From Robiginitomaculum sp. (GTDB lineage Bacteria; Pseudomonadota; Alphaproteobacteria; Caulobacterales; Maricaulaceae): DNA of 64,000 nucleotides. A model generated the notes under the pieces. That model saw only the letters and a list, made by a program, of their open reading frames with translations, did no database searches and had not been told where the DNA came from. The stretch covers positions 3,358 through 67,357 of the forward strand of contig JAJFFQ010000065.1 in the NCBI GenBank assembly GCA_021776565.1, read 5' to 3'. A program made the translations under genes and the position numbers. The first letter of the stretch is position 1; each line of letters opens with the position of its first letter. Positions 4,818 through 16,199 of the stretch are shown here, one piece after another.

Positions 4818-5243
4818 ATGAGTTTTTTTACGGTTCCCGGCAAGGTGCGGTTTGGTCACACTGATTCTGCCGGAATTATTTTTTACCCGCGCTTTTTTGA
4901 AATACAAAATTCAGTGGTTGAAGACTGGTTTGATGACGTACTGGACAGCAGCTTTGCCGCCTTTCGCGAAACCTATGATCTGACCACGCCATTGGTGGAT
5001 GTCAGCACACAATTTTTAGTGCCGTGCCGACTTGGTGAGAAACTGGATGTTATGTTGGGGATCATTCATCTTGGACGGTCGTCTCTGGTTTTGCGTGTAA
5101 TGGCAGAGCGCGATGGTGAGACTTGTATTACCTCACGCGCGGTTCTGGTGTGTAGCAAAACAGATTTTACCGGCTCGGCCCCCTGGCCTGATGAAATTCG
5201 CAAACGTATGCAGTCCTTTCAGATTGAAGAGAGTGAAACGTGA
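4818..5243 (+). CDS. hotdog-fold acyl-CoA thioesterase (4HBT/YbgC-like)
   Basis: The N-terminal motif VRFGHTDSAGIIFYPRFFE is typical of 4HBT thioesterases. The protein is 141 aa. Confidence 0.75.
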   Translation: MSFFTVPGKVRFGHTDSAGIIFYPRFFEIQNSVVEDWFDDVLDSSFAAFRETYDLTTPLVDVSTQFLVPCRLGEKLDVMLGIIHLGRSSLVLRVMAERDGETCITSRAVLVCSKTDFTGSAPWPDEIRKRMQSFQIEESET

Positions 5244-5641
5244 AACAGGTATTGCAACCAAAAGGGTGGAAGCGCCCCAAAGGCTATGCCAACGGCATAG
5301 AGGCAGAGGGTCGTCTGGTTTTTACCGCCGGGATCATTGGCTGGAATGAACAAGAGCAATTTGAAACCGATGATCTGGTTGAACAAATCCGTCAGACCTT
5401 GGCGAACACCCTGGCGATATTGGCAGAGGCCGGTGCGACATCAGAGCATATTGTGCGGATGACCTGGTATGTTACTGATCGAGAGGACTATCAGAACCGG
5501 CAAAAAGAAATAGGTCAGGTCTGGAAAGCGGTTATCGGCAAGCAGTTTCCGTGCATGGCCTGTGTTCAGGTGCTGGCCCTGATGGAGGCGCGAGCAAAAA
5601 TAGAAATCGAAACCATCGCAATGGTGCCGCTAACGCAATAG
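5240..5641 (+). CDS. RidA/YjgF-family enamine/imine deaminase-like protein
   Basis: 133 aa with YjgF-like length and layout (GRLVFTAGIIGW...TWYV...ACVQV). Its GTG start overlaps the thioesterase stop as GTGA. Confidence 0.75.
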   Translation: MKQVLQPKGWKRPKGYANGIEAEGRLVFTAGIIGWNEQEQFETDDLVEQIRQTLANTLAILAEAGATSEHIVRMTWYVTDREDYQNRQKEIGQVWKAVIGKQFPCMACVQVLALMEARAKIEIETIAMVPLTQ

Positions 5642-5669: not shown

Positions 5670-8015
5670 ATGAAAATCACAGTGATTGGCGGTGGGCCAG
5701 GCGGGCTTTATTTTGCCCTGTTGACCAAAAAGGCACGTCCAGATTTTGACATTGAGGTTTTTGAACAAAACCGGGCCGATGATACGTTTGGTTTTGGTGT
5801 GGTGTTTTCGGATGAGACCCTGGACGAATTCTTAAGCGCCGACCCGGCTTCCTATGAGATGATCCGTGACAGTTTTGCCCATTGGAGCGATATTGTTATT
5901 GAGCATGAGGGTCAGCGCACCATTGTTGGTGGTAACGGCTTTGCCGGTTGCTCGCGGCTTACCTTATTAAAAGTCCTGCAAACCCGATGCGAAGCGGTGG
6001 GTGTGAGCATCCACTATTCCACTCAGATTAACCCGGATGAGCTGACCACACGGTTTCCTGATTCTGACATTATTGTTGCCGCAGATGGCATTAACAGTGC
6101 CATTCGTGACAAGCACAAGGCCGAGTTTGGCATGCACACACAATTGCGGCCAAATCATTTTGTCTGGCTAGGATCCGCGCGGCCTCTGGATGCCTTCACG
6201 TTTTTCTTCAAAAAAACTGAACACGGCCATTTTTGCGCCCACACCTATCAGTATGAGGATGGTCGCTCGACCTGGGTGGTTGAAACCACGAAGGAATGTT
6301 GGCAAGCCAGTGGCTTTGCCGATATGGATGAGGCCGAGTGCGCGACTTATCTGGAGGGGGTATTTGCGGACGAACTTGATGGGCATGGCTTTATCACCAA
6401 TCGCTCGTTATGGCGTAATTTTCCAGTGATTACCTGTGATCGCTGGAATGCTGGCAATATCGTTTTGCTGGGCGATAACAAGGCCACGGCGCACTGGTCT
6501 ATTGGCTCAGGCACCAAGCTGGCCATGGAATGTGCCATAGGTTTATCAAAGGCGGTTTTGGATAATGCTGGACATGTTCCCGCCATTTTCGAGCAATACG
6601 AAAACACCCGGCGCACACCGGTGGAGATTACCCAGCATAATGCCGCCGTATCCTTGCGCTGGTTTGAAAATATGCCGCAGCATTGGGATAAATCGCAATA
6701 TGCTTTTGCGTTTTCCATTATGAGCCGGGCCAAATCCATCACCTGGGATAATCTGAAATTGCGCGATGCCAGTTTCCTTAATGCCGCAGAAGACGAATTT
6801 TACACGTGTTATAAAACACAAACCGGGCGCGATATGAGCATAGCCCGCCCAACACCCATGTTCACGCCGTTTGAGCTGCGCGGGTTGACCATCCCCAACC
6901 GTGTTGCGGTGGCCCCTATGGCTCAATATAGCGCGCAAAACGGGTGTCCGACTGATTGGCATTTCTCCCATTATACCGCCCGGGCGCTGGGCGGCGCGGG
7001 TCTGGTTTTTATGGAAATGACCTGCCCCAGTGCTGACGCGCGGATTACGGATGGTTGCACCGGGTTGTGGAATGAAAGTCAGGAGCACGAATGGGCGCGC
7101 ATCAATAACTTCATTCACCAGAACACCACAACAAAGATTGCTTTGCAGCTTGGCCATGCCGGGCGCAAAGGCTCAACCAAGCGCGGTTGGGAAGGCGCGG
7201 ATGAACCCAAGGATGAAAGTAACTGGTCGATTTATTCAGCCTCACCCATTGCCTATACCGAGGGGGTATCTGCGACACCAAAAGAGCTGAACCGCGATGA
7301 TATGGATCGCATACGTGATGAATTTGTCGCCGCCACGATCCGGGCAGATCGTGCAGGATTTGATATGCTGGAACTGCATTGCGCTCACGGATATTTGCTG
7401 GCCAGTTTCCTCTCGCCCCTGACCAATACCCGCACCGATGACTATGGTGGCCCGGCCAAAGCGCGGGTCAAATTCCCGCTGGAGATTTTTGTCGCCATGC
7501 GTGCAGTCTGGCCCCAAAACAAGCCCATATCAGTGCGTCTGTCGTCCTCGGACTGGGCCAGAGGCGGTCTGACACTGGATGATTTGAAAGTTATATCGCT
7601 GGCATTCAAAAATGCTGGCGTAGACATCATTCATGCCTCATCTGGCCAGACGGTGCCGTGGCAAAAACCGGTTTATGGGCGCATGTGGCAAACCCCGTTT
7701 GCGGAATATATTCGCCAAGAAGTGGGTATTCCGACCATTGCTGTGGGCGATATAACCCTGCCAGAGCAGATCAATACCATTATCGCTGATGGTCGTGCAG
7801 ACCTGTGCGCTCTGGCGCGACCGCATCTGAATAATCCAAACTTCACCCGCCAGGCAGCCGGGCATTATGCCATGCACGATCAGAACTGGCCGCCGCAATA
7901 CGAAACCGGGGAGTATCAGCTTTACCGTGAAGCCGAGAAAGTAAGTGAAAAGGCGCTTGATCTGGCCCTAAAAGCGCGCCCCAATCGCCGCCATTATCAA
8001 CGTGCGGTGAAATAG
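5670..8015 (+). CDS. bifunctional FAD monooxygenase / Old-Yellow-Enzyme reductase (2-aminobenzoyl-CoA monooxygenase/reductase or salicylyl-CoA 5-hydroxylase family)
   Basis: 781 aa. The N-terminus has an FAD GxGxxG motif (MKITVIGGGPGGLYFA) in a PHBH-like monooxygenase. The C-terminal half is an OYE-type NADH:flavin oxidoreductase (NRVAVAPMAQYSA, LELHCAHGYLLASFLSP). This fusion architecture is characteristic of the named family. Confidence 0.85.
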   Translation: MKITVIGGGPGGLYFALLTKKARPDFDIEVFEQNRADDTFGFGVVFSDETLDEFLSADPASYEMIRDSFAHWSDIVIEHEGQRTIVGGNGFAGCSRLTLLKVLQTRCEAVGVSIHYSTQINPDELTTRFPDSDIIVAADGINSAIRDKHKAEFGMHTQLRPNHFVWLGSARPLDAFTFFFKKTEHGHFCAHTYQYEDGRSTWVVETTKECWQASGFADMDEAECATYLEGVFADELDGHGFITNRSLWRNFPVITCDRWNAGNIVLLGDNKATAHWSIGSGTKLAMECAIGLSKAVLDNAGHVPAIFEQYENTRRTPVEITQHNAAVSLRWFENMPQHWDKSQYAFAFSIMSRAKSITWDNLKLRDASFLNAAEDEFYTCYKTQTGRDMSIARPTPMFTPFELRGLTIPNRVAVAPMAQYSAQNGCPTDWHFSHYTARALGGAGLVFMEMTCPSADARITDGCTGLWNESQEHEWARINNFIHQNTTTKIALQLGHAGRKGSTKRGWEGADEPKDESNWSIYSASPIAYTEGVSATPKELNRDDMDRIRDEFVAATIRADRAGFDMLELHCAHGYLLASFLSPLTNTRTDDYGGPAKARVKFPLEIFVAMRAVWPQNKPISVRLSSSDWARGGLTLDDLKVISLAFKNAGVDIIHASSGQTVPWQKPVYGRMWQTPFAEYIRQEVGIPTIAVGDITLPEQINTIIADGRADLCALARPHLNNPNFTRQAAGHYAMHDQNWPPQYETGEYQLYREAEKVSEKALDLALKARPNRRHYQRAVK

Positions 8016-8050: not shown

Positions 8051-9199
8051 CTAGGCCAACAGCGTGCGGTTCTTTTCCAGCGCCGCCAACACCACCTCAA
8101 TGTCATCCATATTGTTATAAAAATGTGCGGATACCCGCAGGTTTCCATCCCGGCAAGAGGTGATAATATGCTCTGCCTCAAGGGCGGCAACCAGTTGATG
8201 ATCGTCTGTGCTGCGGATGGCCACCATAGGGCCGTGGTGCGTGTCTTTGACAGGGCTGGCCAGTGAACCGCCTAGGGCCACCACGCCTTTTTTAAGCGCC
8301 GCATTGAGTGCCATGACATGCGCCCGGATGCTCGCAACACCGACATTCAAAACATAGTCCAGCCCGGCCTCGGCGGCGTAAAGTGCAGGCACACTGGGCG
8401 TACCTTGCTCAAACCGCCGGGCATTGGGTGCTGGCTCATTAGCATGAATTTTCATGGCATGAATATCGGCCTGGGCGAACCAGCCGGTTTGCAAGGGATA
8501 CAGGCTTTCTATGAGTACCTCGCGGACATACAAAAACCCGATACCGGCACTGCCGAGCAGGTATTTCAACGCGCCGCCAATGGCAAAATCCACATCCAGA
8601 TCACGCACATCAAAGGGTACCGCGCCAAGCCCCTGATACCCGTCAACCAGCATTAACGCCCCTGCATCATGAGCGATTTTACAAATCGCAGCGATATCGT
8701 TCAAGGCACCATGGCGATAACAAACCAGCGGTACCGCGACCAGTAGTGTGCGCTCGTCCACCAGTTCAGCTAAATGTTCAAGATCAAGCTGACCGTCATC
8801 TTGTTCGCGGGCATGGACAACATCACCGCCGCGCGCGGTTTGTGCGTGCCAGTTTTGTGCCTCGGTCGGAAACGCCTGATCGGTAGTTACCACGCGGTTG
8901 CGTTTGCCGGAAAAATCAAAACTGCTGATAAGGCTGCTCAATGCCGCCGAAGCTGATGTGGTCACAGCCATTTCGTCTGTCTTTGCGCCGACAAGTTGTG
9001 CAAAGCGTTCCCGCACTCTTTCATGGCGCTCAACCCAGCCCATCCAGTCTGCGCCGCGTGCGTTGCGACAGGAAAGGTATGCACCATATGAGGCTTCAAC
9101 CTGATGGGACAATGCCCCATAGGCGCATGAGTTTATGTAGTGTGTGTGCGTGAATATAGGGAAGTCACGGCGATAATTCTGCATATCTGGCTCACTCAT
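8051..9199 (-). CDS. class V-fold PLP-dependent enzyme (aminotransferase / desulfurase / epimerase-like)
   Basis: Class-V fold motifs are present (LVDGYQGLGAVPFDV, GGALKYLLGSAGIGFLYV with a candidate PLP lysine). I chose ATG 9199 (MSEPDMQNY) because it overlaps the upstream transporter stop as ATGA. Confidence 0.8.
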   Translation of the reverse strand: MSEPDMQNYRRDFPIFTHTHYINSCAYGALSHQVEASYGAYLSCRNARGADWMGWVERHERVRERFAQLVGAKTDEMAVTTSASAALSSLISSFDFSGKRNRVVTTDQAFPTEAQNWHAQTARGGDVVHAREQDDGQLDLEHLAELVDERTLLVAVPLVCYRHGALNDIAAICKIAHDAGALMLVDGYQGLGAVPFDVRDLDVDFAIGGALKYLLGSAGIGFLYVREVLIESLYPLQTGWFAQADIHAMKIHANEPAPNARRFEQGTPSVPALYAAEAGLDYVLNVGVASIRAHVMALNAALKKGVVALGGSLASPVKDTHHGPMVAIRSTDDHQLVAALEAEHIITSCRDGNLRVSAHFYNNMDDIEVVLAALEKNRTLLA

Positions 9200-10542
9200 T
9201 TCCACACCGCGATCAAAATAATAGCTAGCGGAAGCAGTATGCGTAAAGTCCAAATCCATACACTCTCAAGCGTGGCTGACAAGCCCAGCTTTCCACGCAC
9301 TATTTTTGCCATTATCCAACCGGTAAAAAGCGCAATCATGAAGCCATTAAAGGGTAGCAACACACTGGCAATGGCAAAATCCATGGTGTCGAAAACACCC
9401 TTGCCGGCAAAGCCCGGAACGCCATTAAGCGGAAATATATCTTTCCAGATATTAAAAGACAGCAGGGCCGTTATGCCAATAAACCACGCGGCTGATCCGG
9501 CCAGTATTGTCCCGCGCGTGCGTGACATGCCGCGCTGTTCTGCCATCCAGGCGACAACCGGCTCCAGTGTGCCGATACCAGTAGTGAAGGCAGCAAAAAA
9601 CAACAATACGAAAAACACGGCGCCAACGATGGCCCCGCCGGTCATTTGCCCAAATGCGGTGGGCAGGGTTACAAAAATAAGCCCGGGGCCACCAGCAGGG
9701 TCAAGGCCTTGAGCAAAAACAAGAGGAAAAATCGCCAATCCGGCCATCAGGGCAATACCGGTATCAACCAGGGCAATGATGGCAACCGAGCGGCCCAGCG
9801 AGATACCTTCGGGCACATAGGCACCGTAAGTTATCATGATGCCGACACCGATGGCGAGCGAGAAGAAGGCCTGTCCCGCCGCCACAATAACGGTTTTCCC
9901 GGTCACAGCCGACCAGTCCGGTGAAAACAGAAAATCAAATGCCTGTGCTGTATCACCGGTAACAAGGGCATAGCTCATCAACCCGGCAAGCATAATGAAA
10001 AGCGCGGGCATCAATATGCGTGAAAAGGCTTCAATGCCGCCCTGAACGCCCCGGATCAGCACCAGCATGACGCCGCCTATGAAAATGCTATGGCCAAGCA
10101 ATAAACGCCACGGGTTGGCAAGCATGGCATTAAAGCGCCCTGTGGCGATCGTGCCGTCAACACTTGTTACCTTGCCGACAATACCTTGCGCGGCAAAATC
10201 CACAGTCCAGCCACCCACGACGCTGTAATAGGCAATGCCGACAAAGGCGATAAAAACACTCATAAATCCTATGATTTGCCAGCCATTACTGGCCCCGGTT
10301 TTGCTGACCAGTGCCTTGATACTATGGATGGCACTGCCGCCGCCGGTGCGCCCCAGAACAAGTTCGGCCAGCATGATCGGCATACCAATGAGAAACACGC
10401 AGGCGATATAGATCAATACAAAAGCCCCGCCGCCATTTTCACCGGCCAGAAACGAAAACCGCCACAGATTGCCAAGCCCGACGGCGGCCCCAATGGTGGC
10501 CAGAATAAACCCAAGACCAGATGACCAGCGTTTATCGTGCAT
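9196..10542 (-). CDS. sodium-dependent transporter, neurotransmitter:sodium symporter (NSS/SNF) family
   Basis: MHDKRWSSGLGFILATIGAAVGLGNLWRFSFLAGENGGGAFVLIY is the canonical NSS N-terminus, and the protein is polytopic. The track start at 10593 is a GTG inside the upstream gene. Confidence 0.9.
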   Translation of the reverse strand: MHDKRWSSGLGFILATIGAAVGLGNLWRFSFLAGENGGGAFVLIYIACVFLIGMPIMLAELVLGRTGGGSAIHSIKALVSKTGASNGWQIIGFMSVFIAFVGIAYYSVVGGWTVDFAAQGIVGKVTSVDGTIATGRFNAMLANPWRLLLGHSIFIGGVMLVLIRGVQGGIEAFSRILMPALFIMLAGLMSYALVTGDTAQAFDFLFSPDWSAVTGKTVIVAAGQAFFSLAIGVGIMITYGAYVPEGISLGRSVAIIALVDTGIALMAGLAIFPLVFAQGLDPAGGPGLIFVTLPTAFGQMTGGAIVGAVFFVLLFFAAFTTGIGTLEPVVAWMAEQRGMSRTRGTILAGSAAWFIGITALLSFNIWKDIFPLNGVPGFAGKGVFDTMDFAIASVLLPFNGFMIALFTGWIMAKIVRGKLGLSATLESVWIWTLRILLPLAIILIAVWK

Positions 10543-10552
10543 TGTTTTCAAC

Positions 10553-11641
10553 CTAGTAATTGATTGCCGGGCTGCCGGCGGGATAAAACGCACCCATCAG
10601 ACGTAGCCCATTAGGGTCAGTACATTCCAGAGAGTGTCCCTGACGTTTGCTCAGGAATATCACATCGCCCGGCTTTACCGGCGCCCGGCAATGTTCCGTC
10701 CACATCATTCCCTCCCCGGAAAGAATAACGATGGCTTCCTCATAAAGATGGCGGTGAAACGCGGCGCGGGACAAGGGAACTTCGCCAATAAACTGGGTGA
10801 TTTGCCTGGAGCCAACCAGATCATCCACCAATACCTGAAAAAAACGATCGGCCATGACATTGGCTTTTTCATTATCGACGCCAACCCGGCGCTCGGCAAA
10901 TTTACGATCAAACCGGCTATCAGGGCCATTTGGGGGGGCATCGGGCCAACTCATCGTGCCGTTATGGGGGCAAATTGCCGCCATGATTGTCATGCTTGTT
11001 TCTGCCTGAATTTGAAATGCTTCGCCCGATTTCACATAAATGCCGGTCTCTGGCCCGACTTTAAATATCTTACCTTCTATGTTGATATGCCCGTTACCGG
11101 AGATCACAAACAGCACCGTGTCGCTGTCCTCATGGCGTCGCCAGGGCGAAATTCCGGGGTTTGCAAGCATGCGCAAAAGGCCGAGATGTTTTGCCCCGTG
11201 TCTGGCCCCGATCAGGGTTTGACAAGCCAGTGTGCCGTTATGTTCATCTTGCGCCGGGTCAGGCGTTAGCACATAGGCGCCACCGTCCAGTATGGCCTTG
11301 CCGCCGCTTTTGGGATCACGCTCGACCAGTTTGGCATCGCTCATGGTCGCGATTTCATCTGCGCTGGCTTCTTCATAGGTGTCTTGAAGATTGTTGTGCG
11401 CCCCATCGCAAAAGGGGCCAGCGCGGGTGCGCTTGCAGGCACATAAAAGTACATCTTCGGATTTGTCGGCAACAAACATTAACGGCGTAAACTTTGTTCC
11501 CGCATGAGAGCCATCGCAAAAGGGTTGCTTTTTGCTGCGCCCGCATGAGCACCAGAAATACCGCTTGCCTTCTTCCAGCGAAACAAGACATGGCTTGTAC
11601 GCCGCGATAACTGGTTCATTATTTTTAATATCACTGGTCAT
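10553..11641 (-). CDS. fusion protein: two CDGSH iron-sulfur motifs followed by a bicupin
   Basis: CSCGRSKKQPFCDGSH and CACKRTRAGPFCDGAH lie in the first ~85 aa. Two cupin barrels follow; the second carries an HxH...E metal motif (AAFHRHLYEEAIVILSGEG ... GDVIFLSKRQGHSLEC). Confidence 0.75.
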   Translation of the reverse strand: MTSDIKNNEPVIAAYKPCLVSLEEGKRYFWCSCGRSKKQPFCDGSHAGTKFTPLMFVADKSEDVLLCACKRTRAGPFCDGAHNNLQDTYEEASADEIATMSDAKLVERDPKSGGKAILDGGAYVLTPDPAQDEHNGTLACQTLIGARHGAKHLGLLRMLANPGISPWRRHEDSDTVLFVISGNGHINIEGKIFKVGPETGIYVKSGEAFQIQAETSMTIMAAICPHNGTMSWPDAPPNGPDSRFDRKFAERRVGVDNEKANVMADRFFQVLVDDLVGSRQITQFIGEVPLSRAAFHRHLYEEAIVILSGEGMMWTEHCRAPVKPGDVIFLSKRQGHSLECTDPNGLRLMGAFYPAGSPAINY

Positions 11642-11796
11642 GCAAATGTTTTAGGTCTTAAAGCGCGTTTGTGCTATCTAAAAATATGCTTCTAAGTTCA
11701 ATAAATGGTGAGAGAATGGCAATAATTATACGCTTCATCGGATTGGTTAGTTTTGCCGTGCTGATCTTGTCAAACACGGCATGAAATCTGGCACCG

Positions 11797-12654
11797 ATGA
11801 CTGAGGCAAATAAAACCGCGCTGGAGCGCGAATACTCACCAAGTTCTCGCGTGGACGATATTGGTGTTTTTATTGACGAATATATCCGGCAAAGCGCGCA
11901 TATGCGCGAAGCCTACGCCGCCAATTTATATGAAAACCTGCATTATGGTGATGCGCCCCGGGCGATGATGGATATTTTTGTACCAAAGGGTGCTGGCCCG
12001 TTTCCGGTTCATGTTTTCATCCATGGCGGTTATTGGCAGGCGCTTTCCAAAATCGAGAGCATTTTTGCGGCAAAGAATTTCCTGGATCAAGGCATCATTT
12101 TTATTGCCCTTGGTTACACATTGGCCCCCAAGGCAAATTTGGCACAAATCACCCAGGAAGCCCGCGCCGGCGCGCTTTGGGTATTACACGAAATTGCCCG
12201 ATTTGGCGGTGATCCACACTACATAACCATGTCCGGTCATTCTGCCGGAGCGCATTTGCTGGCCGAAATTATTGCCATGGATTGGCCAGATGCCGGGTTT
12301 GCAAAATGTCCACTGGCCGGGGCAACATTGATTAGCGGTGTTTATGATCTGCGTCCCCTGGTGCAGACCTATATCAATGATGCCCTTGGGATGAGCGCAG
12401 AAGATGCGGCTATGGCCAGCCCGCTATTGCACCTCCCACAAAGCGCCTGCCCGTTGATTTTCACCCATGGCGATAATGAAACCAATGCCTTCAAAGCGCA
12501 AACCAGAACCTTTCGCAAAGCCCTGCAAGAGAAGGGTATTGAGAGTGATTATCTGTCCATGGCGGGTTTCAACCATTTCGACATTATTCTGGAACTGGCT
12601 AATCCGGCCAGCCCATTATTTGCTGCTATCATGCAGCAAATGGAGGTCAGGTAA
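11797..12654 (+). CDS. alpha/beta-hydrolase arylformamidase (kynurenine formamidase, AFMID-type)
   Basis: HGGYW oxyanion motif and nucleophile elbow GHSAGAHL. It is convergent with kynureninase, with an 8-nt 3' overlap. Confidence 0.7.
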   Translation: MTEANKTALEREYSPSSRVDDIGVFIDEYIRQSAHMREAYAANLYENLHYGDAPRAMMDIFVPKGAGPFPVHVFIHGGYWQALSKIESIFAAKNFLDQGIIFIALGYTLAPKANLAQITQEARAGALWVLHEIARFGGDPHYITMSGHSAGAHLLAEIIAMDWPDAGFAKCPLAGATLISGVYDLRPLVQTYINDALGMSAEDAAMASPLLHLPQSACPLIFTHGDNETNAFKAQTRTFRKALQEKGIESDYLSMAGFNHFDIILELANPASPLFAAIMQQMEVR

Positions 12655-13885
12655 CGCTTTCACGTGTGGCAAAGCGCGGGTTTTGCCACAGTTTCCTGTC
12701 CATGACAGCTTTTATGCCTTGCACGGCGTCCCACACGTCCTGATAGCGGGTATAAAGCGGCGTCAGGCCAAAACGCATTATGTCGGGCGCACGAAAATCA
12801 CCAATAATGCGCGCCTCTATCAAGGCCTTCATAATGGCATAGCCATGGGGATGGGAAAAGGCGACCTGGCTACCCCGGATCGTCGCTTCTTTTGGGCTAA
12901 TCAGACTAAACCCATACTCGGCACAGTATTCACTCATGAGGGCGATAAACATATCCCCAAGCGCCATGGATTTTTCCCGTATCAGCGTCATATCAGCACG
13001 CAGCATCATATCAATGCCGGTTTCCAGTGCGCCAAGCGATAATATGGGCTGTGTGCCGCTCATCAATTGGCGAATATCCCGGGCCGGGCGGTAATCATGT
13101 TCAAAGGCAAATGGATCATCATGGCTCCACCAGCCGGTTAGCGGCTGTATGGCTTTGTCCAGATGGCGCTTTGCCGCATAAAGGAACGCTGGTGCGCCTG
13201 GGCCACCGTTGAGATATTTATAGCCACAGCCAACGGCAAAATCTGCCTTGGCTGCGCCCAGATCGACCGGCAGAGCACCGGCGCTATGGCACAGATCCCA
13301 GCACATCAGGGCACCGGCTTTGTGGGTGCGTTCTGTGATCTCGTTCATATCATAAACATGGCCGGTTTTATAATGCACCTGGGTGAGGGCGACGACGGCA
13401 ATCTCGGGGGTGATATGCGCGGCAAAATTATCTCGTTCTGCAAAACGCACTTCATGGCCCCGGCCTAGCTGGCGGACAAGTCCCTGGGCAATGTAATTAT
13501 CGGTGGGAAAATTACTGCCCTCCATCAAAATCACTTTGCGATCAGGGCGTAAATCAAGAGCCATGGACAGAAGCTTATAAAGATTGATCCCGGTGCTATC
13601 GGTGACCAGGACTTCATCGTCCCGGGCGCCGATCAATCTGGCAATCTTTGCCCCGATGCGTGTCGGTAAATCAAACCAGCCATTGGTATTCCAGCTGGTG
13701 ATGAGATCCTGCGCCCATTCTTTTGACACAAGCGTTTCAATGCGTTGCCTTGCGACACGGGGCATAGCGCCCAGTGAATTACCATCAAGGTAAATCACGC
13801 CGTCTGGCAGGATGAACTCATCGCGAAATGAGCGCAGCGGGTCGGAAGAGTCATGAGCCAAAAAGGTTTCGCGGATTAGCGGCAT
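12647..13885 (-). CDS. kynU: kynureninase
   Basis: MPLIRETFLAHDSSDPLRSFRDEFILPDGVIYLDGNSLGAMP and the PLP-lysine region GCGYKYLNGGPGAPAF. ATG 13885 has GGGGGA upstream; the track start at 13900 is TTG. Confidence 0.9.
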   Translation of the reverse strand: MPLIRETFLAHDSSDPLRSFRDEFILPDGVIYLDGNSLGAMPRVARQRIETLVSKEWAQDLITSWNTNGWFDLPTRIGAKIARLIGARDDEVLVTDSTGINLYKLLSMALDLRPDRKVILMEGSNFPTDNYIAQGLVRQLGRGHEVRFAERDNFAAHITPEIAVVALTQVHYKTGHVYDMNEITERTHKAGALMCWDLCHSAGALPVDLGAAKADFAVGCGYKYLNGGPGAPAFLYAAKRHLDKAIQPLTGWWSHDDPFAFEHDYRPARDIRQLMSGTQPILSLGALETGIDMMLRADMTLIREKSMALGDMFIALMSEYCAEYGFSLISPKEATIRGSQVAFSHPHGYAIMKALIEARIIGDFRAPDIMRFGLTPLYTRYQDVWDAVQGIKAVMDRKLWQNPRFATRESVT

Positions 13886-13973
13886 GGGATCGTCCCCCAA
13901 GTCAAAACCAGATGGCTAACACATCCTGATAAATTGCACCATTATAGTTGTGCCTGAGCGAGTGAGGATAAGT

Positions 13974-14152
13974 GTGCTCATATAGCGAAGCGATAGCACA
14001 AGAATCACGTGCTCATATAGCGAAGCAATAGCACAAGAATCACGTGCTCATATAGCGAAGCGATAGCACAAGAATCACGTGCTCATATAGCGAAGCGATA
14101 GCACAAGAATCACGTGCTCATCTAGCGAAGTTTACCGTCGCGATAGTACAAG
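13974..14152. repeat. tandem array of a 35-bp unit (4 near-identical copies plus 1 degenerate copy)
   Basis: GTGCTCATATAGCGAAGCGATAGCACAAGAATCAC occurs at 13974, 14009 (1 mismatch), 14044 and 14079. A fifth copy at 14114 has a 1-nt change, a ~10-nt insertion and a diverged tail. Each junction forms CACGTG. Confidence 0.95.
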
Positions 14153-14507: not shown

Positions 14508-16199
14508 TTAGGCTCCCTCGGCAATCATGGCTTCGCGCAGGGCTTTTTTGGCAATTTTACCAGAGGCAATGCGGGGCAGGGCTTCATCATGAAACACCAT
14601 GATCGAGGGGGTTTTAAAGGCTGCCAGATGCGCGGCCAGATCAGCCATCAGTTTTTGTGCATCCAGGCCGCTATCCGGGCGGGCATAGATCACACTTGCC
14701 ACCACTTCGCCAAGGCGCGCATGGGGCAGACCAAAAACCGTGGCTTCCAGCACGTCCGGGTGCGCACAAATGGCGGCTTCGACTTCCAGTGTGGCAATGT
14801 TTTCGCCGCCCCTGATGATTATATCCTTGATACGATCAACAACATAAAAATAGCCATCCTCGTCCTTGATGCCCACATCGCCGGTGCATAGCCAGCCGTC
14901 CTTAAAGGCCTCGGCTGTGGCATCTGGCTGGTTCCAGTAACCGCGAATGTTGGCCGCCGACTTGATGCAAATTTCACCGCGTTCACCCATAGGAACTTCA
15001 TTGCCTTGCGGGTCGCGGATTTGCATTTCCACAATAGGTCGTGGTGGTTTGCCAATGCTGGAGGGGCGCGCAAGGTAATCATCGCCGGCAATAATTGAGC
15101 CAATGCCATTGGTTTCGGTCAGGCCATAACCGGCCAGCGGTTTTGCCTGCTCAAGCATGTCATCAAGAGGTTTAACTTGGTCAGGTGGGCGCGCCGCACC
15201 GCCGGCACCAAGATCATTCAGGCTGGAAAGGTCATAATCGTCACGATTGGGGGCGTTCATCAGATCGGCGGTCATGGTCGGCACACCGGTAAGCGAGGTT
15301 ACGCGCTCTTTTTCGATAAGGCGCATGGCCACATTCACATCCCATTTGCGCATGAGTATCATCTTGCGAGCCGCGACAATGGAGACAAGAAAAATCACCA
15401 CACAACCGGTAACGTGAAACAGGGGAATGGTTTGCAGAACAATAGGTTGCGGGCCGTCTTTGCCCGGGATTTCCCCGCGTGCACTTTGCATGGCAAGGCC
15501 CATCAACGCATAACCAAGAATACCGGTTATGACTCCCCGATTGGTCGAAACCGCTCCCTTTGGATGACCGGTAGAGCCAGATGTATACATCAATGTGGCG
15601 TCATCTTCAGGGTCAATATCAACCTCTGGCGGTGTCGTTTCATTTCGGCTGGCCAACAGGGCGTCATAATCCAGCAGACGCGGGTGTGTGTGGTCAAACT
15701 CACCGCTGACTATCAGGGTAAAATCCTGTGTTCCCAGTAATGGAGCGATGTTTTTTGCCCGCCGTGGATCTGCAAGAATAATTTTGGCACCGCTATCTTC
15801 AATAGCATAGGCGATCTCCTCGGTTCCCCACCAGGAATTTAACGGCGTTGCCACCGCCCCGGCCAGCAAGGCACCGATAAAGCCGATAACCCATTCAGGG
15901 CGATTGCGCATGGAAATGGCAACCTTGTCGCCTTTTTGAATACCCAGCTCGACAAGTACATGGGCAAACCGCGCCGAAGCCTCATAGGTTTGGCGAAAAC
16001 TCATGCGCATATCATTTTCAACAAGAAAGGGCAGATCGTCATGTTGCAACATCATGCCAAACAGATCGCGTAAACTGTCCGGGGCTTTGGCAAATACGGC
16101 ATATTCAACGCCGTCAATGGTCTCGCGATCAACGGCCAGGTCGGCTTCTGGTGCGGTGGCGGCGGCAATGAACGCCTCAAAATGATCGATAAAACTCAT
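14508..16199 (-). CDS. AMP-dependent acyl-CoA synthetase/ligase (aryl-CoA ligase candidate)
   Basis: Adenylate-forming motifs are present (MYTSGSTGHPKGAV, GYGLTETNG, GWLCTGDVG, IASGKIAKK). Confidence 0.9.
   Translation of the reverse strand: MSFIDHFEAFIAAATAPEADLAVDRETIDGVEYAVFAKAPDSLRDLFGMMLQHDDLPFLVENDMRMSFRQTYEASARFAHVLVELGIQKGDKVAISMRNRPEWVIGFIGALLAGAVATPLNSWWGTEEIAYAIEDSGAKIILADPRRAKNIAPLLGTQDFTLIVSGEFDHTHPRLLDYDALLASRNETTPPEVDIDPEDDATLMYTSGSTGHPKGAVSTNRGVITGILGYALMGLAMQSARGEIPGKDGPQPIVLQTIPLFHVTGCVVIFLVSIVAARKMILMRKWDVNVAMRLIEKERVTSLTGVPTMTADLMNAPNRDDYDLSSLNDLGAGGAARPPDQVKPLDDMLEQAKPLAGYGLTETNGIGSIIAGDDYLARPSSIGKPPRPIVEMQIRDPQGNEVPMGERGEICIKSAANIRGYWNQPDATAEAFKDGWLCTGDVGIKDEDGYFYVVDRIKDIIIRGGENIATLEVEAAICAHPDVLEATVFGLPHARLGEVVASVIYARPDSGLDAQKLMADLAAHLAAFKTPSIMVFHDEALPRIASGKIAKKALREAMIAEGA

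Follow-up and report, generated by a model that had tools for sequence, protein, structure and literature searches.

In a 64,000-nucleotide stretch of contig JAJFFQ010000065.1 from the alphaproteobacterium Robiginitomaculum sp. (hereafter the window, whose positions are used throughout), a gene on the minus strand (10553-11641) encodes a 362-residue protein in which a tandem CDGSH iron-sulfur module is fused to a bicupin. This CDGSH-bicupin architecture is real, widespread and undescribed in the literature searched, which contained nothing relevant joining CDGSH with cupin, kynurenine or anthranilate, nor kynureninase with cupin. Because the gene recurs together with kynureninase-like enzymes, importers of amino acids and the anthranilate-CoA pathway, the protein probably represents an oxygen-dependent step of tryptophan/anthranilate catabolism that has gone unrecognised. 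Judged from its sequence, it is a cytoplasmic metalloenzyme composed of the tandem CDGSH module, an N-terminal cupin barrel without metal ligands and a C-terminal barrel with a metal site.

A tandem CDGSH module fused to a bicupin

A Pfam scan of the open reading frame (ORF) identified two stretches of zf-CDGSH (E = 3e-17) and two of Cupin_2 (E = 1.8e-16), an arrangement shared by full-length homologs. Residues 7-85 (11387-11623; all features within the gene are on the minus strand) form a tandem module of the MiNT/3TBN type, recognised by its similarity to solved structures: they align end to end with 3TBN (phmmer, E = 3e-24) and with human MiNT/CISD3 (6AVJ, E = 3e-18), and a profile search of the module gave E = 1.5e-29. 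The first-pass annotation had placed two CDGSH motifs in the first ~85 residues and both are present. Read from the sequence, motif 1, CSCGRSKKQPFCDGSH, covers residues 31-46 (11504-11551) with ligands C31, C33, C42 and H46, and motif 2, CACKRTRAGPFCDGAH, covers residues 67-82 (11396-11443) with ligands C67, C69, C78 and H82. The pattern that defines tandem CDGSH proteins of types 5/6 (PF09360), C-X-C-X2-(S/T)-X3-P-X-C-D-G-(S/A/T)-H with three Cys and one His and occurring twice per chain, is therefore complete at both sites.

The module as a whole matches the known tandem CISD proteins of types 5/6 (Magnetospirillum MmCISD, 3TBN; MiNT/CISD3, 6AVJ), which likewise carry two complete C-X-C...C-D-G-(S/A)-H sites, and free-standing relatives are common in the source's bacterial class, with 32 further loci (L049-L080) that encode a free-standing tandem CDGSH protein alone at 54-64% identity. 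The known proteins, however, are small and free-standing and have no assigned enzymatic role, whereas in the present protein the module forms the N-terminal part of an enzyme-like chain and is fused to a bicupin of 277 aa. In the CISD classification the only fusion partner is DUF1271, in type 7 (PMC3174974).

The bicupin assignment is supported by the two Cupin_2 stretches, by the beta strands of the AlphaFold2 model, which is a confident single body (pLDDT 89, pTM 0.86), and by Foldseek matches to bicupins. In the N-terminal barrel (~residues 115-225, 10967-11299), where AlphaFold2 predicts beta strands, there are no His metal ligands and only G182 and E207 are conserved in our alignment; this barrel has lost its ligands and is probably structural. 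The C-terminal barrel (~residues 265-355, 10577-10849; best Cupin_2 stretch, residues 293-348) is the catalytic candidate. For its second barrel the first-pass annotation had proposed an HxH...E site (FHRHLYEE); we find H296, H298 and E302 in the motif HRHLYEE (10736-10756), also present in stand-alone relatives and in relatives fused to a pyridoxal phosphate (PLP) enzyme, and a fourth ligand, H336, in cupin motif 2 (10634-10636), with C340 close by in the motif HSLEC. Together these four residues match the cupin metal-site consensus, G(X)5HXH(X)3-4E(X)6G plus the motif-2 His, which the N-terminal barrel does not.

At the level of fold the protein is a generic bicupin. The top Foldseek matches were quercetinase YxaG and oxalate decarboxylase, at identities of 11-17%, with e-values to bicupin dioxygenases and oxidases of 1e-13 to 6e-17; the most compact match was YlbA/DUF861 (TM 0.72 on the target, rmsd 4.2). 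No curated family beyond the domain level was matched in Pfam, NCBIfam or a PDB profile search. The bicupin fold, the HxH...E...H motif and an aromatic catabolic context are shared with YxaG, OxdC and the gentisate and salicylate 1,2-dioxygenases, but none of these enzymes is known to carry an Fe-S domain and the protein described here has ligands only in its C-terminal barrel.

Conservation of the fusion and of its active site

Our main homolog search covered 5.8 billion proteins and gave 3757 matches among the scored candidates. PF09360 and PF07883 occurred together in all 120 of the 120 best clusters (50-100% identity), whose members are mostly ~350 aa long (range 308-378). With one genome sampled per species we recovered 48 full-length bicupin loci, chiefly from Alpha- and Gammaproteobacteria with one from Acidobacteriota, and in a maximum-likelihood tree every CDGSH-fused form fell in one clade (support 100/100) to which the stand-alone and PLP-fused proteins are sister groups. 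Because the fusion is common to the 120 best clusters and its carriers form a single clade, it is not an artefact; the 48 loci likewise speak against a frameshift or chimera, an origin that the first-pass annotation had raised and that we reject.

All 8 Fe-S ligands were invariant in 54 of 54 homologs, down to 37% identity. The same was true of H296, H298, E302 and H336, which bears out the expectation of conserved cupin ligands for the C-terminal barrel (the N-terminal barrel has none), and of R251, R266, Y300, W314 and E207. C340 was kept in 50 of the 54; relatives without CDGSH read HCLEN at that point.

Searched on its own against 1.84 billion cluster representatives, the bicupin half matched 417 clusters, 43 of them at E <= 1e-30, including stand-alone bicupins of ~250 aa. 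More than 20 actinobacterial clusters were PLP-bicupin fusions, whose PLP part is a class-V enzyme of the TIGR01976 'cysteine desulfurase-like' family. Other actinobacterial proteins, of 757-790 aa, have a BCP/PrxQ-type peroxiredoxin domain between PLP enzyme and bicupin, at the exact position of the CDGSH module, and one protein, P0163, is a natural CDGSH-monocupin that retains the CDGSH module and the C-terminal barrel and lacks the N-terminal barrel. The stand-alone and PLP-fused relatives have an identical active site and no redox domain. Across all these architectures the C-terminal barrel is near-invariant (R266, T282, F284, P289, R/K292, H296, H298, E302, H336, E339 and an SPA tail), which implies that the family shares one catalytic activity and that the redox module is optional. 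The three-domain proteins with TIGR01976 PLP enzyme, BCP-type peroxiredoxin and bicupin include P0285, P0289 and others (loci L090 and L096, 8001-10373), and an HTH-cupin regulator adjoins the three-domain protein in both loci examined, L090 and L096.

Gene neighbourhood of the CDGSH-bicupin

In the window, the bicupin stop codon lies 10 nt before the ATG (10542) of an NSS/SNF sodium-dependent amino-acid transporter (9196-10542, minus; Pfam SNF, NCBIfam Na_transp), and the transporter stop overlaps the start of a class-V PLP enzyme as ATGA (9199-9196). This enzyme, here called PLPV (8051-9199, minus), is kynureninase/SufS-like without a catalytic Cys: it carries Aminotran_5 with a weak KYNU_C match, its PDB matches to SufS and to kynureninase 1QZ9 are about equal, and the Cys in its S-C-R-x-G motif is not conserved among orthologs. 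Bicupin, transporter and PLPV are predicted to be co-transcribed, and the co-orientation and 10-nt gap described in the first-pass annotation hold.

That annotation had also called the bicupin divergent from a kynurenine formamidase and placed it in a kynurenine/anthranilate cluster, and both descriptions fit what we observe. Across an AT-rich intergenic region of 155 bp (11642-11796) lies a BD-FAE alpha/beta hydrolase gene (11797-12654, plus) whose product is kynurenine-formamidase-like (Pfam BD-FAE; Drosophila kynurenine formamidase, PDB 4E11, E = 1.3e-22). A consensus scan found no convincing promoter inside the 155-bp spacer, and its sole nearby match (11646-11618), which is weak evidence, overlaps the bicupin start. 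A canonical kynureninase, KynU (12647-13900, minus; TIGR01814, 318 bits against a cut-off of 246), and an AMP-forming acyl/aryl-CoA ligase (14508-16199, minus; Pfam AMP-binding and AMP-binding_C) follow. On the other flank the plus strand carries a 4HBT thioesterase (4818-5243) and RidA (5240-5641), both assigned by Pfam/NCBIfam and overlapping by 4 nt (5240-5243), and an ACMR-like aryl-CoA 5-hydroxylase/reductase (5670-8015; NF006101, 1018 bits against a cut-off of 1078) that starts 28 nt past the RidA stop. The enamine product of the ACMR reaction is the probable substrate of RidA, which would deaminate it. The cluster also holds ECH, ACAD, HCDH and ALDH genes and an IOR-like pair (indolepyruvate:ferredoxin oxidoreductase family).

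The first-pass annotation had proposed profile searches and a tabulation of homologs with their neighbourhoods; the former returned zf-CDGSH and Cupin_2 as described above, and for the latter we grouped into clusters every ORF lying up to 4 kb from the bicupin in 53 loci. Class-V PLP enzymes were found near the bicupin in 22 of the 53, mostly on the same strand and in 8 cases with a gap below 50 nt. APC permeases occurred in 12 loci, TonB-dependent receptors in 11, amidohydrolases in 11, SNF transporters in 9 and ACMR-like genes in 6; NSS, APC or TonB-dependent transporters were present in 28 loci, and a PLP gene or a transporter in 36. The PLP partners belong to the PLPV type, to divergent second-copy kynureninases (225-253 bits) and to TIGR01976, and the SufS catalytic Cys is found in none of these subfamilies. 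As this Cys is absent or not conserved in all of them, we rejected the idea that the partner is a true cysteine desulfurase loading the Fe-S clusters.

The order bicupin, NSS, PLPV of the window recurs in Iodidimonas, and minimal operons of transporter, PLP enzyme and bicupin are found in L085 (SNF, PLPV, bicupin) and in G031, where a KynB-type cyclase and an opposite-strand thioesterase precede APC permease, PLPV and bicupin and the operon adjoins KMO-KynU-HAAO. L005 has the order cyclase, IOR, ligase, ACMR, thioesterase, bicupin, PLPV, and ligase, ACMR, thioesterase and bicupin are contiguous or nearly so in L005, L083 and L086. The L005 and G031 clusters contain all functions from tryptophan to anthranilate bar tryptophan dioxygenase (TDO), which was absent from 59 bicupin loci totalling 1.02 Mb when searched with five diverse TDO queries that detect each other. 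Outside the CDGSH clade, a stand-alone bicupin gene of Thermoanaerobaculia is convergent with a KYNU_C-like PLP gene, and an actinobacterial PLP-bicupin fusion is preceded by a Liv-type ABC transporter for amino acids, and BD-FAE and FmdA hydrolases are encoded close by. Operons and fusions alike couple the bicupin to PLP enzymes of the Cys-less kynureninase/SufS-like kind and to transporters of amino acids.

Co-occurrence with tryptophan and kynurenine genes

We compared a carrier set of 37-38 genomes, drawn from more than one class and including many metagenome-assembled genomes (MAGs), with a class-wide baseline sample of 301 genomes by Fisher tests that ignore phylogeny. The baseline sample contained the bicupin in 5 of 301 genomes, all 5 with KynU and TDO, KynU in 59 (20%) and TDO in 48. 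Canonical kynureninase scored above its cut-off in 27 of 38 carriers (5 more fell just below) versus 54 of 296 non-carriers (odds ratio 11, p = 8e-11), and TDO was found in 22 of 37 carriers versus 43 of 296 non-carriers (odds ratio 8.6, p = 9e-9). A full-length ACMR-like enzyme was present in 35 of 38 carriers, a count made in carriers alone, HAAO in 4 of 38 and KMO in 1 of 38. The CDGSH-bicupin is linked at the genome level to the tryptophan, kynurenine, anthranilate and 2-aminobenzoyl-CoA network. With the PLP genes near it in 22 of 53 loci, the KynU, TDO and ACMR counts assign it to the kynurenine/anthranilate gene set by context, not by homology.

A proposed oxygen-dependent step of tryptophan/anthranilate catabolism

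We consider it fairly likely that the CDGSH-bicupin is an O2-dependent, redox-serviced cupin enzyme of tryptophan/anthranilate catabolism coupled to a PLP enzyme. Each CDGSH site would bind a [2Fe-2S] cluster and the cupin site would bind Fe(II) or a similar metal and activate O2, a role that we infer from bicupin precedents and from the substitution of a peroxiredoxin for the CDGSH module. Bicupin and PLP lyase would form a two-step module that converts an imported tryptophan/kynurenine-type amino acid to alanine and an anthranilate-type acid. After ring opening, the conversion would be finished by the adjacent formamidase and kynureninase-like enzyme, and the acid would feed into the CoA ligase and ACMR pathway encoded alongside. 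Since a redox domain is missing from relatives that have the same site, the Fe-S clusters would act as a built-in electron relay that re-reduces the catalytic metal after adventitious oxidation rather than as a stoichiometric supply for every turnover.

Accessory iron-sulfur centres of this kind have precedent. Bacterial HAAO is a monocupin dioxygenase of the kynurenine pathway with a rubredoxin-like iron site (Cys4); XylT, a plant-type ferredoxin made as a separate protein, reactivates catechol 2,3-dioxygenase. Both illustrate how a dioxygenase, a cupin in the case of HAAO, may carry or be served by an iron-sulfur centre that maintains the catalytic Fe(II), although neither is related in sequence to the CDGSH-bicupin. 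The 'self-reactivating dioxygenase' suggested in the first-pass annotation is still a leading reading, the more so since relatives can do without the redox module and Actinobacteria have a peroxiredoxin in its place. Context evidence is strongest for a link with a kynureninase-like PLP partner and an imported amino acid; it does not single out a hydroxylated anthranilate.

As a whole, the combination of a bicupin and PLP lyase module, tryptophan-type ring opening and Fe-S servicing of the metal is the best explanation available to us, and we offer it tentatively. Somewhat more doubtful is the step at its centre, namely that the bicupin directly upstream of the PLP enzyme is a heme-independent ring-opening dioxygenase of tryptophan or a close analogue. 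The bicupin does fill the 'TDO slot' among formamidase-like, kynureninase-like and anthranilate-consuming genes, and like the heme enzymes TDO and IDO, which act with KynB and KynU, it would need its metal kept reduced. It has, however, no relation to them in sequence or fold (no match to PF03301 or PF01231 in Pfam), and TDO coexists with it in the 22 of 37 carriers noted above. That it is the founding member of a class of heme-independent tryptophan(-analogue) ring-opening dioxygenases with a built-in Fe-S reductant, which together with the Cys-less PLP lyase would constitute a second, hitherto unseen route from an indolic amino acid to anthranilate, is bolder still and on balance unlikely.

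Several points weigh against the reading that we favour. The identity of the metal, the use of O2 and the substrate are all inferred, and we know of no precedent for a cupin-type tryptophan dioxygenase. The window holds two kynureninase-type genes that the proposed module does not explain, and a PLP gene is missing from several loci, those with TonB receptors and amidohydrolases. In about ten loci IOR is encoded no more than 10 kb away from the bicupin; it could supply electrons, which would suit a monooxygenase instead. The co-occurrence statistics ignore phylogeny and draw on many MAGs, and the ACMR count covers carriers only. Further, the source genome itself has a TDO on a separate contig, and TDO is missing from KynU-positive carriers no more frequently than from KynU-positive genomes of the baseline (11 of 32 versus 19 of 54, p = 1), so the bicupin is not a simple TDO substitute; together with the enrichment of TDO in carriers, this led us to reject it as a plain TDO replacement. 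A search for IDO gave no match, but it was run without a positive control and is uninformative.

Should the CDGSH-bicupin prove to be the founder of such a class of heme-independent dioxygenases, it would give a bacterial NEET/CDGSH domain its first defined enzymatic job. CDGSH/NEET proteins such as mitoNEET and MiNT are studied medically and their biochemical role is debated; to our knowledge no function has been assigned to those of bacteria. A fusion that is conserved, that joins the domain to an enzyme whose metal site is invariant and whose catabolic setting is defined, would open this role, be it electron relay or reactivation, to experiment. The finding also bears on unassigned steps of tryptophan catabolism, as nearly all carriers are without KMO and a 3-hydroxyanthranilate operon with no known hydroxylase occurs in at least one complete genome, and the PLP-bicupin and PLP-peroxiredoxin-bicupin fusions give the uncharacterised TIGR01976 family a functional partner. 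It is thus relevant both to Fe-S/NEET biochemistry and to tryptophan catabolism, and would combine two known kinds, a cupin metalloenzyme and an accessory Fe-S centre.

Alternative explanations

The first-pass annotation's own idea, a ring-cleaving dioxygenase of a hydroxylated anthranilate with Sdg-type logic, survives best among the alternatives, and we judge it rather improbable. CoA ligase, ACMR-like 5-hydroxylase and 4HBT thioesterase would release 5-hydroxyanthranilate or a related aminophenol or hydroquinone acid, the bicupin would open its ring, and iron that a redox-cycling substrate had oxidised would be reduced again by the CDGSH clusters; a peroxiredoxin or Fe-S accessory is sensible for autoxidisable substrates. 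The idea draws support from the ACMR-like enzyme in 35 of 38 carriers, from the order ligase, ACMR, thioesterase, bicupin in L005, L083 and L086 with the same genes close by in the window, from nearby RidA genes that could serve enamine products, and from a fold like those of the gentisate and salicylate dioxygenases. The literature describes gentisyl-CoA thioesterases of the 4HBT type (PMC516016) as well as a 5-hydroxyanthranilate route (PMC4539516). The known ACMR product, on the other hand, is non-aromatic and enters beta-oxidation (PMC4539516), and ECH, ACAD and HCDH genes are present in the window. In several carriers TDO-KynU-ACMR superclusters lack the bicupin, which adjoins a second kynureninase-like gene elsewhere, and the PLP-bicupin fusions and transporter-PLP-bicupin operons are left unexplained. 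There is also no family-level similarity to gentisate dioxygenase or HAAO: gentisate/salicylate 1,2-dioxygenase models gave no match at E <= 0.01 in Pfam and NCBIfam (fold-level identity, 11%), the HAAO models PF06052 and TIGR03037 gave none in the same databases (profile against PDB HAAO, E = 0.28), and the N-terminal barrel has no conserved His with which to build the 3-His iron site that gentisate-type enzymes hold there. The assignment to the gentisate or 3-hydroxyanthranilate dioxygenase type is therefore not supported: the likeness is at the fold level only (11-17% identity), and the metal site is in the C-terminal barrel only.

Less probable again is a two-electron monooxygenase, a functional analogue of the Rieske oxygenases in which two [2Fe-2S] clusters would feed the cupin iron, kynurenine or anthranilate would be hydroxylated and the PLP partner would be a hydroxykynureninase. 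The cofactor inventory, a His-ligated [2Fe-2S] cluster and a mononuclear non-heme iron, is that of Rieske oxygenases; the folds, with a 2Cys-2His Rieske domain and a catalytic alpha/beta domain, are unrelated, and those enzymes need electrons stoichiometrically. The Rieske domain PF00355 had no match in the protein (Pfam), and its cluster sites are of the CDGSH type. Two one-electron clusters, or a dithiol-type domain in Actinobacteria, do directly precede the bicupin, and IOR, a ferredoxin-reducing enzyme, is encoded within 10 kb in the loci mentioned above, but no conserved reductase gene lies nearby, and BCP domains are peroxidases and not typical electron donors. The relatives with an identical active site and no redox domain argue in the same direction. 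For the substrate, the hydroxylation would suit the lack of KMO in 37 of 38 carriers, the divergent second kynureninase as partner, the G031 operon beside KMO-KynU-HAAO, and two genomes with HAAO and without KMO, a Kordiimonadaceae MAG and Pseudemcibacter, which has an HAAO-ACMSD-RidA-AMSDH operon. With HAAO in only 4 of 38 carriers, however, hydroxyanthranilate would have no known fate in most, and TDO, the kynurenine source, is missing in 15 of 37. The scarcity of HAAO also led us to reject the bicupin as a general KMO analogue feeding HAAO and NAD synthesis; we keep that role as a minority rival.

A non-oxygenase function is more improbable still. The bicupin would in that case be a metal-dependent hydrolase, deaminase, isomerase or decarboxylase like the small bicupin YlbA, (S)-ureidoglycine aminohydrolase, with CDGSH as a redox or iron sensor gating activity, or as a structural element. 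YlbA/DUF861 is the best compact structural match (TM 0.72), similar in size to the bicupin part and with its metal likewise in the C-terminal barrel; the bicupin and its relatives give weak TIGR03214 matches, and amidohydrolases and hydantoinases neighbour it in some loci. NEET proteins, too, are often discussed as sensors or cluster donors. The TIGR03214 score of the bicupin, however, is 21.9 bits against a cut-off of 200, its ligand set is HxH..E..H, unlike the Glu/His/His/Gln of ureidoglycine aminohydrolase, and the known enzyme is a hydrolase of purine catabolism. The independent peroxiredoxin fusion in another phylum points to oxygen or peroxide chemistry and so counts against this explanation.

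Finally, a sulfur amino-acid module, in which a cupin thiol (cysteine-type) dioxygenase and a Cys-less SufS-like sulfinate desulfinase would turn imported cysteine or cystine into alanine and sulfite, is very improbable: it is chemically complete as a two-enzyme module, its PLP partners without catalytic Cys do sit in the SufS/TIGR01976 'cysteine desulfurase-like' clade, desulfination does not require the SufS catalytic Cys, redoxin fusions exist and a Cys_Met_Meta_PP gene lies beside the bicupin in L033, but the CDGSH clade is linked strongly and specifically to kynureninase, TDO, ACMR and KYNU_C-type partners, no sulfite-handling genes are among the recurrent neighbours in the 53 loci, and the 3His+Glu site differs from the 3-His site of thiol dioxygenases, with no CDO-family match in Pfam.

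Further observations on associated genes

The sole TDO of the source genome (contig C35, 122154-122897) is short (247 aa) and divergent, scoring 68 bits on PF03301; judged by eye, it apparently keeps the distal and proximal His and the Tyr/Arg substrate residues. It adjoins an Lrp/AsnC regulator, far from the kynU/formamidase cluster. In the class sample, 19 of 59 kynureninase-positive genomes had no PF03301 match; either kynurenine import or divergent enzymes for the first step would then be frequent.

The complete genome of Pseudemcibacter aquimaris (G037) has an operon for ACMSD-like protein, HAAO, RidA and aminomuconate-semialdehyde dehydrogenase (L092, 8448-14174), followed by a divergent LysR regulator and, just beyond, a tryptophan permease; this genome had no KMO homolog even at E 1e-5. 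In another genome, G016, a Rieske/VanA_C oxygenase (L095, 5368-6426) ends an ACMSD-HAAO-RidA-AMSDH-KynU cluster and is a candidate alternative kynurenine or anthranilate hydroxylase. We rejected it as the general missing hydroxylase, since G037 and G005 have distant paralogs only and no ortholog.

One apparent fusion of a PALP domain with a cupin, P0159 (294 aa), was set aside. Its threonine dehydratase-like N-terminus breaks abruptly into the middle of a C-terminal cupin (62% identity), and it is probably the product of a deletion or of faulty assembly. In L004, L005, L029 and L043 a KynB-type cyclase gene is found no more than ~2 kb from an IOR-like gene, directly adjacent to it in three of them; IOR may serve the CDGSH module as its reductant in the cell. 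The window also carries 4.5 head-to-tail copies of a 35-bp unit with 97% identity (13974-14130), upstream of the kynureninase gene on its promoter side, which may be an array of regulatory sites.

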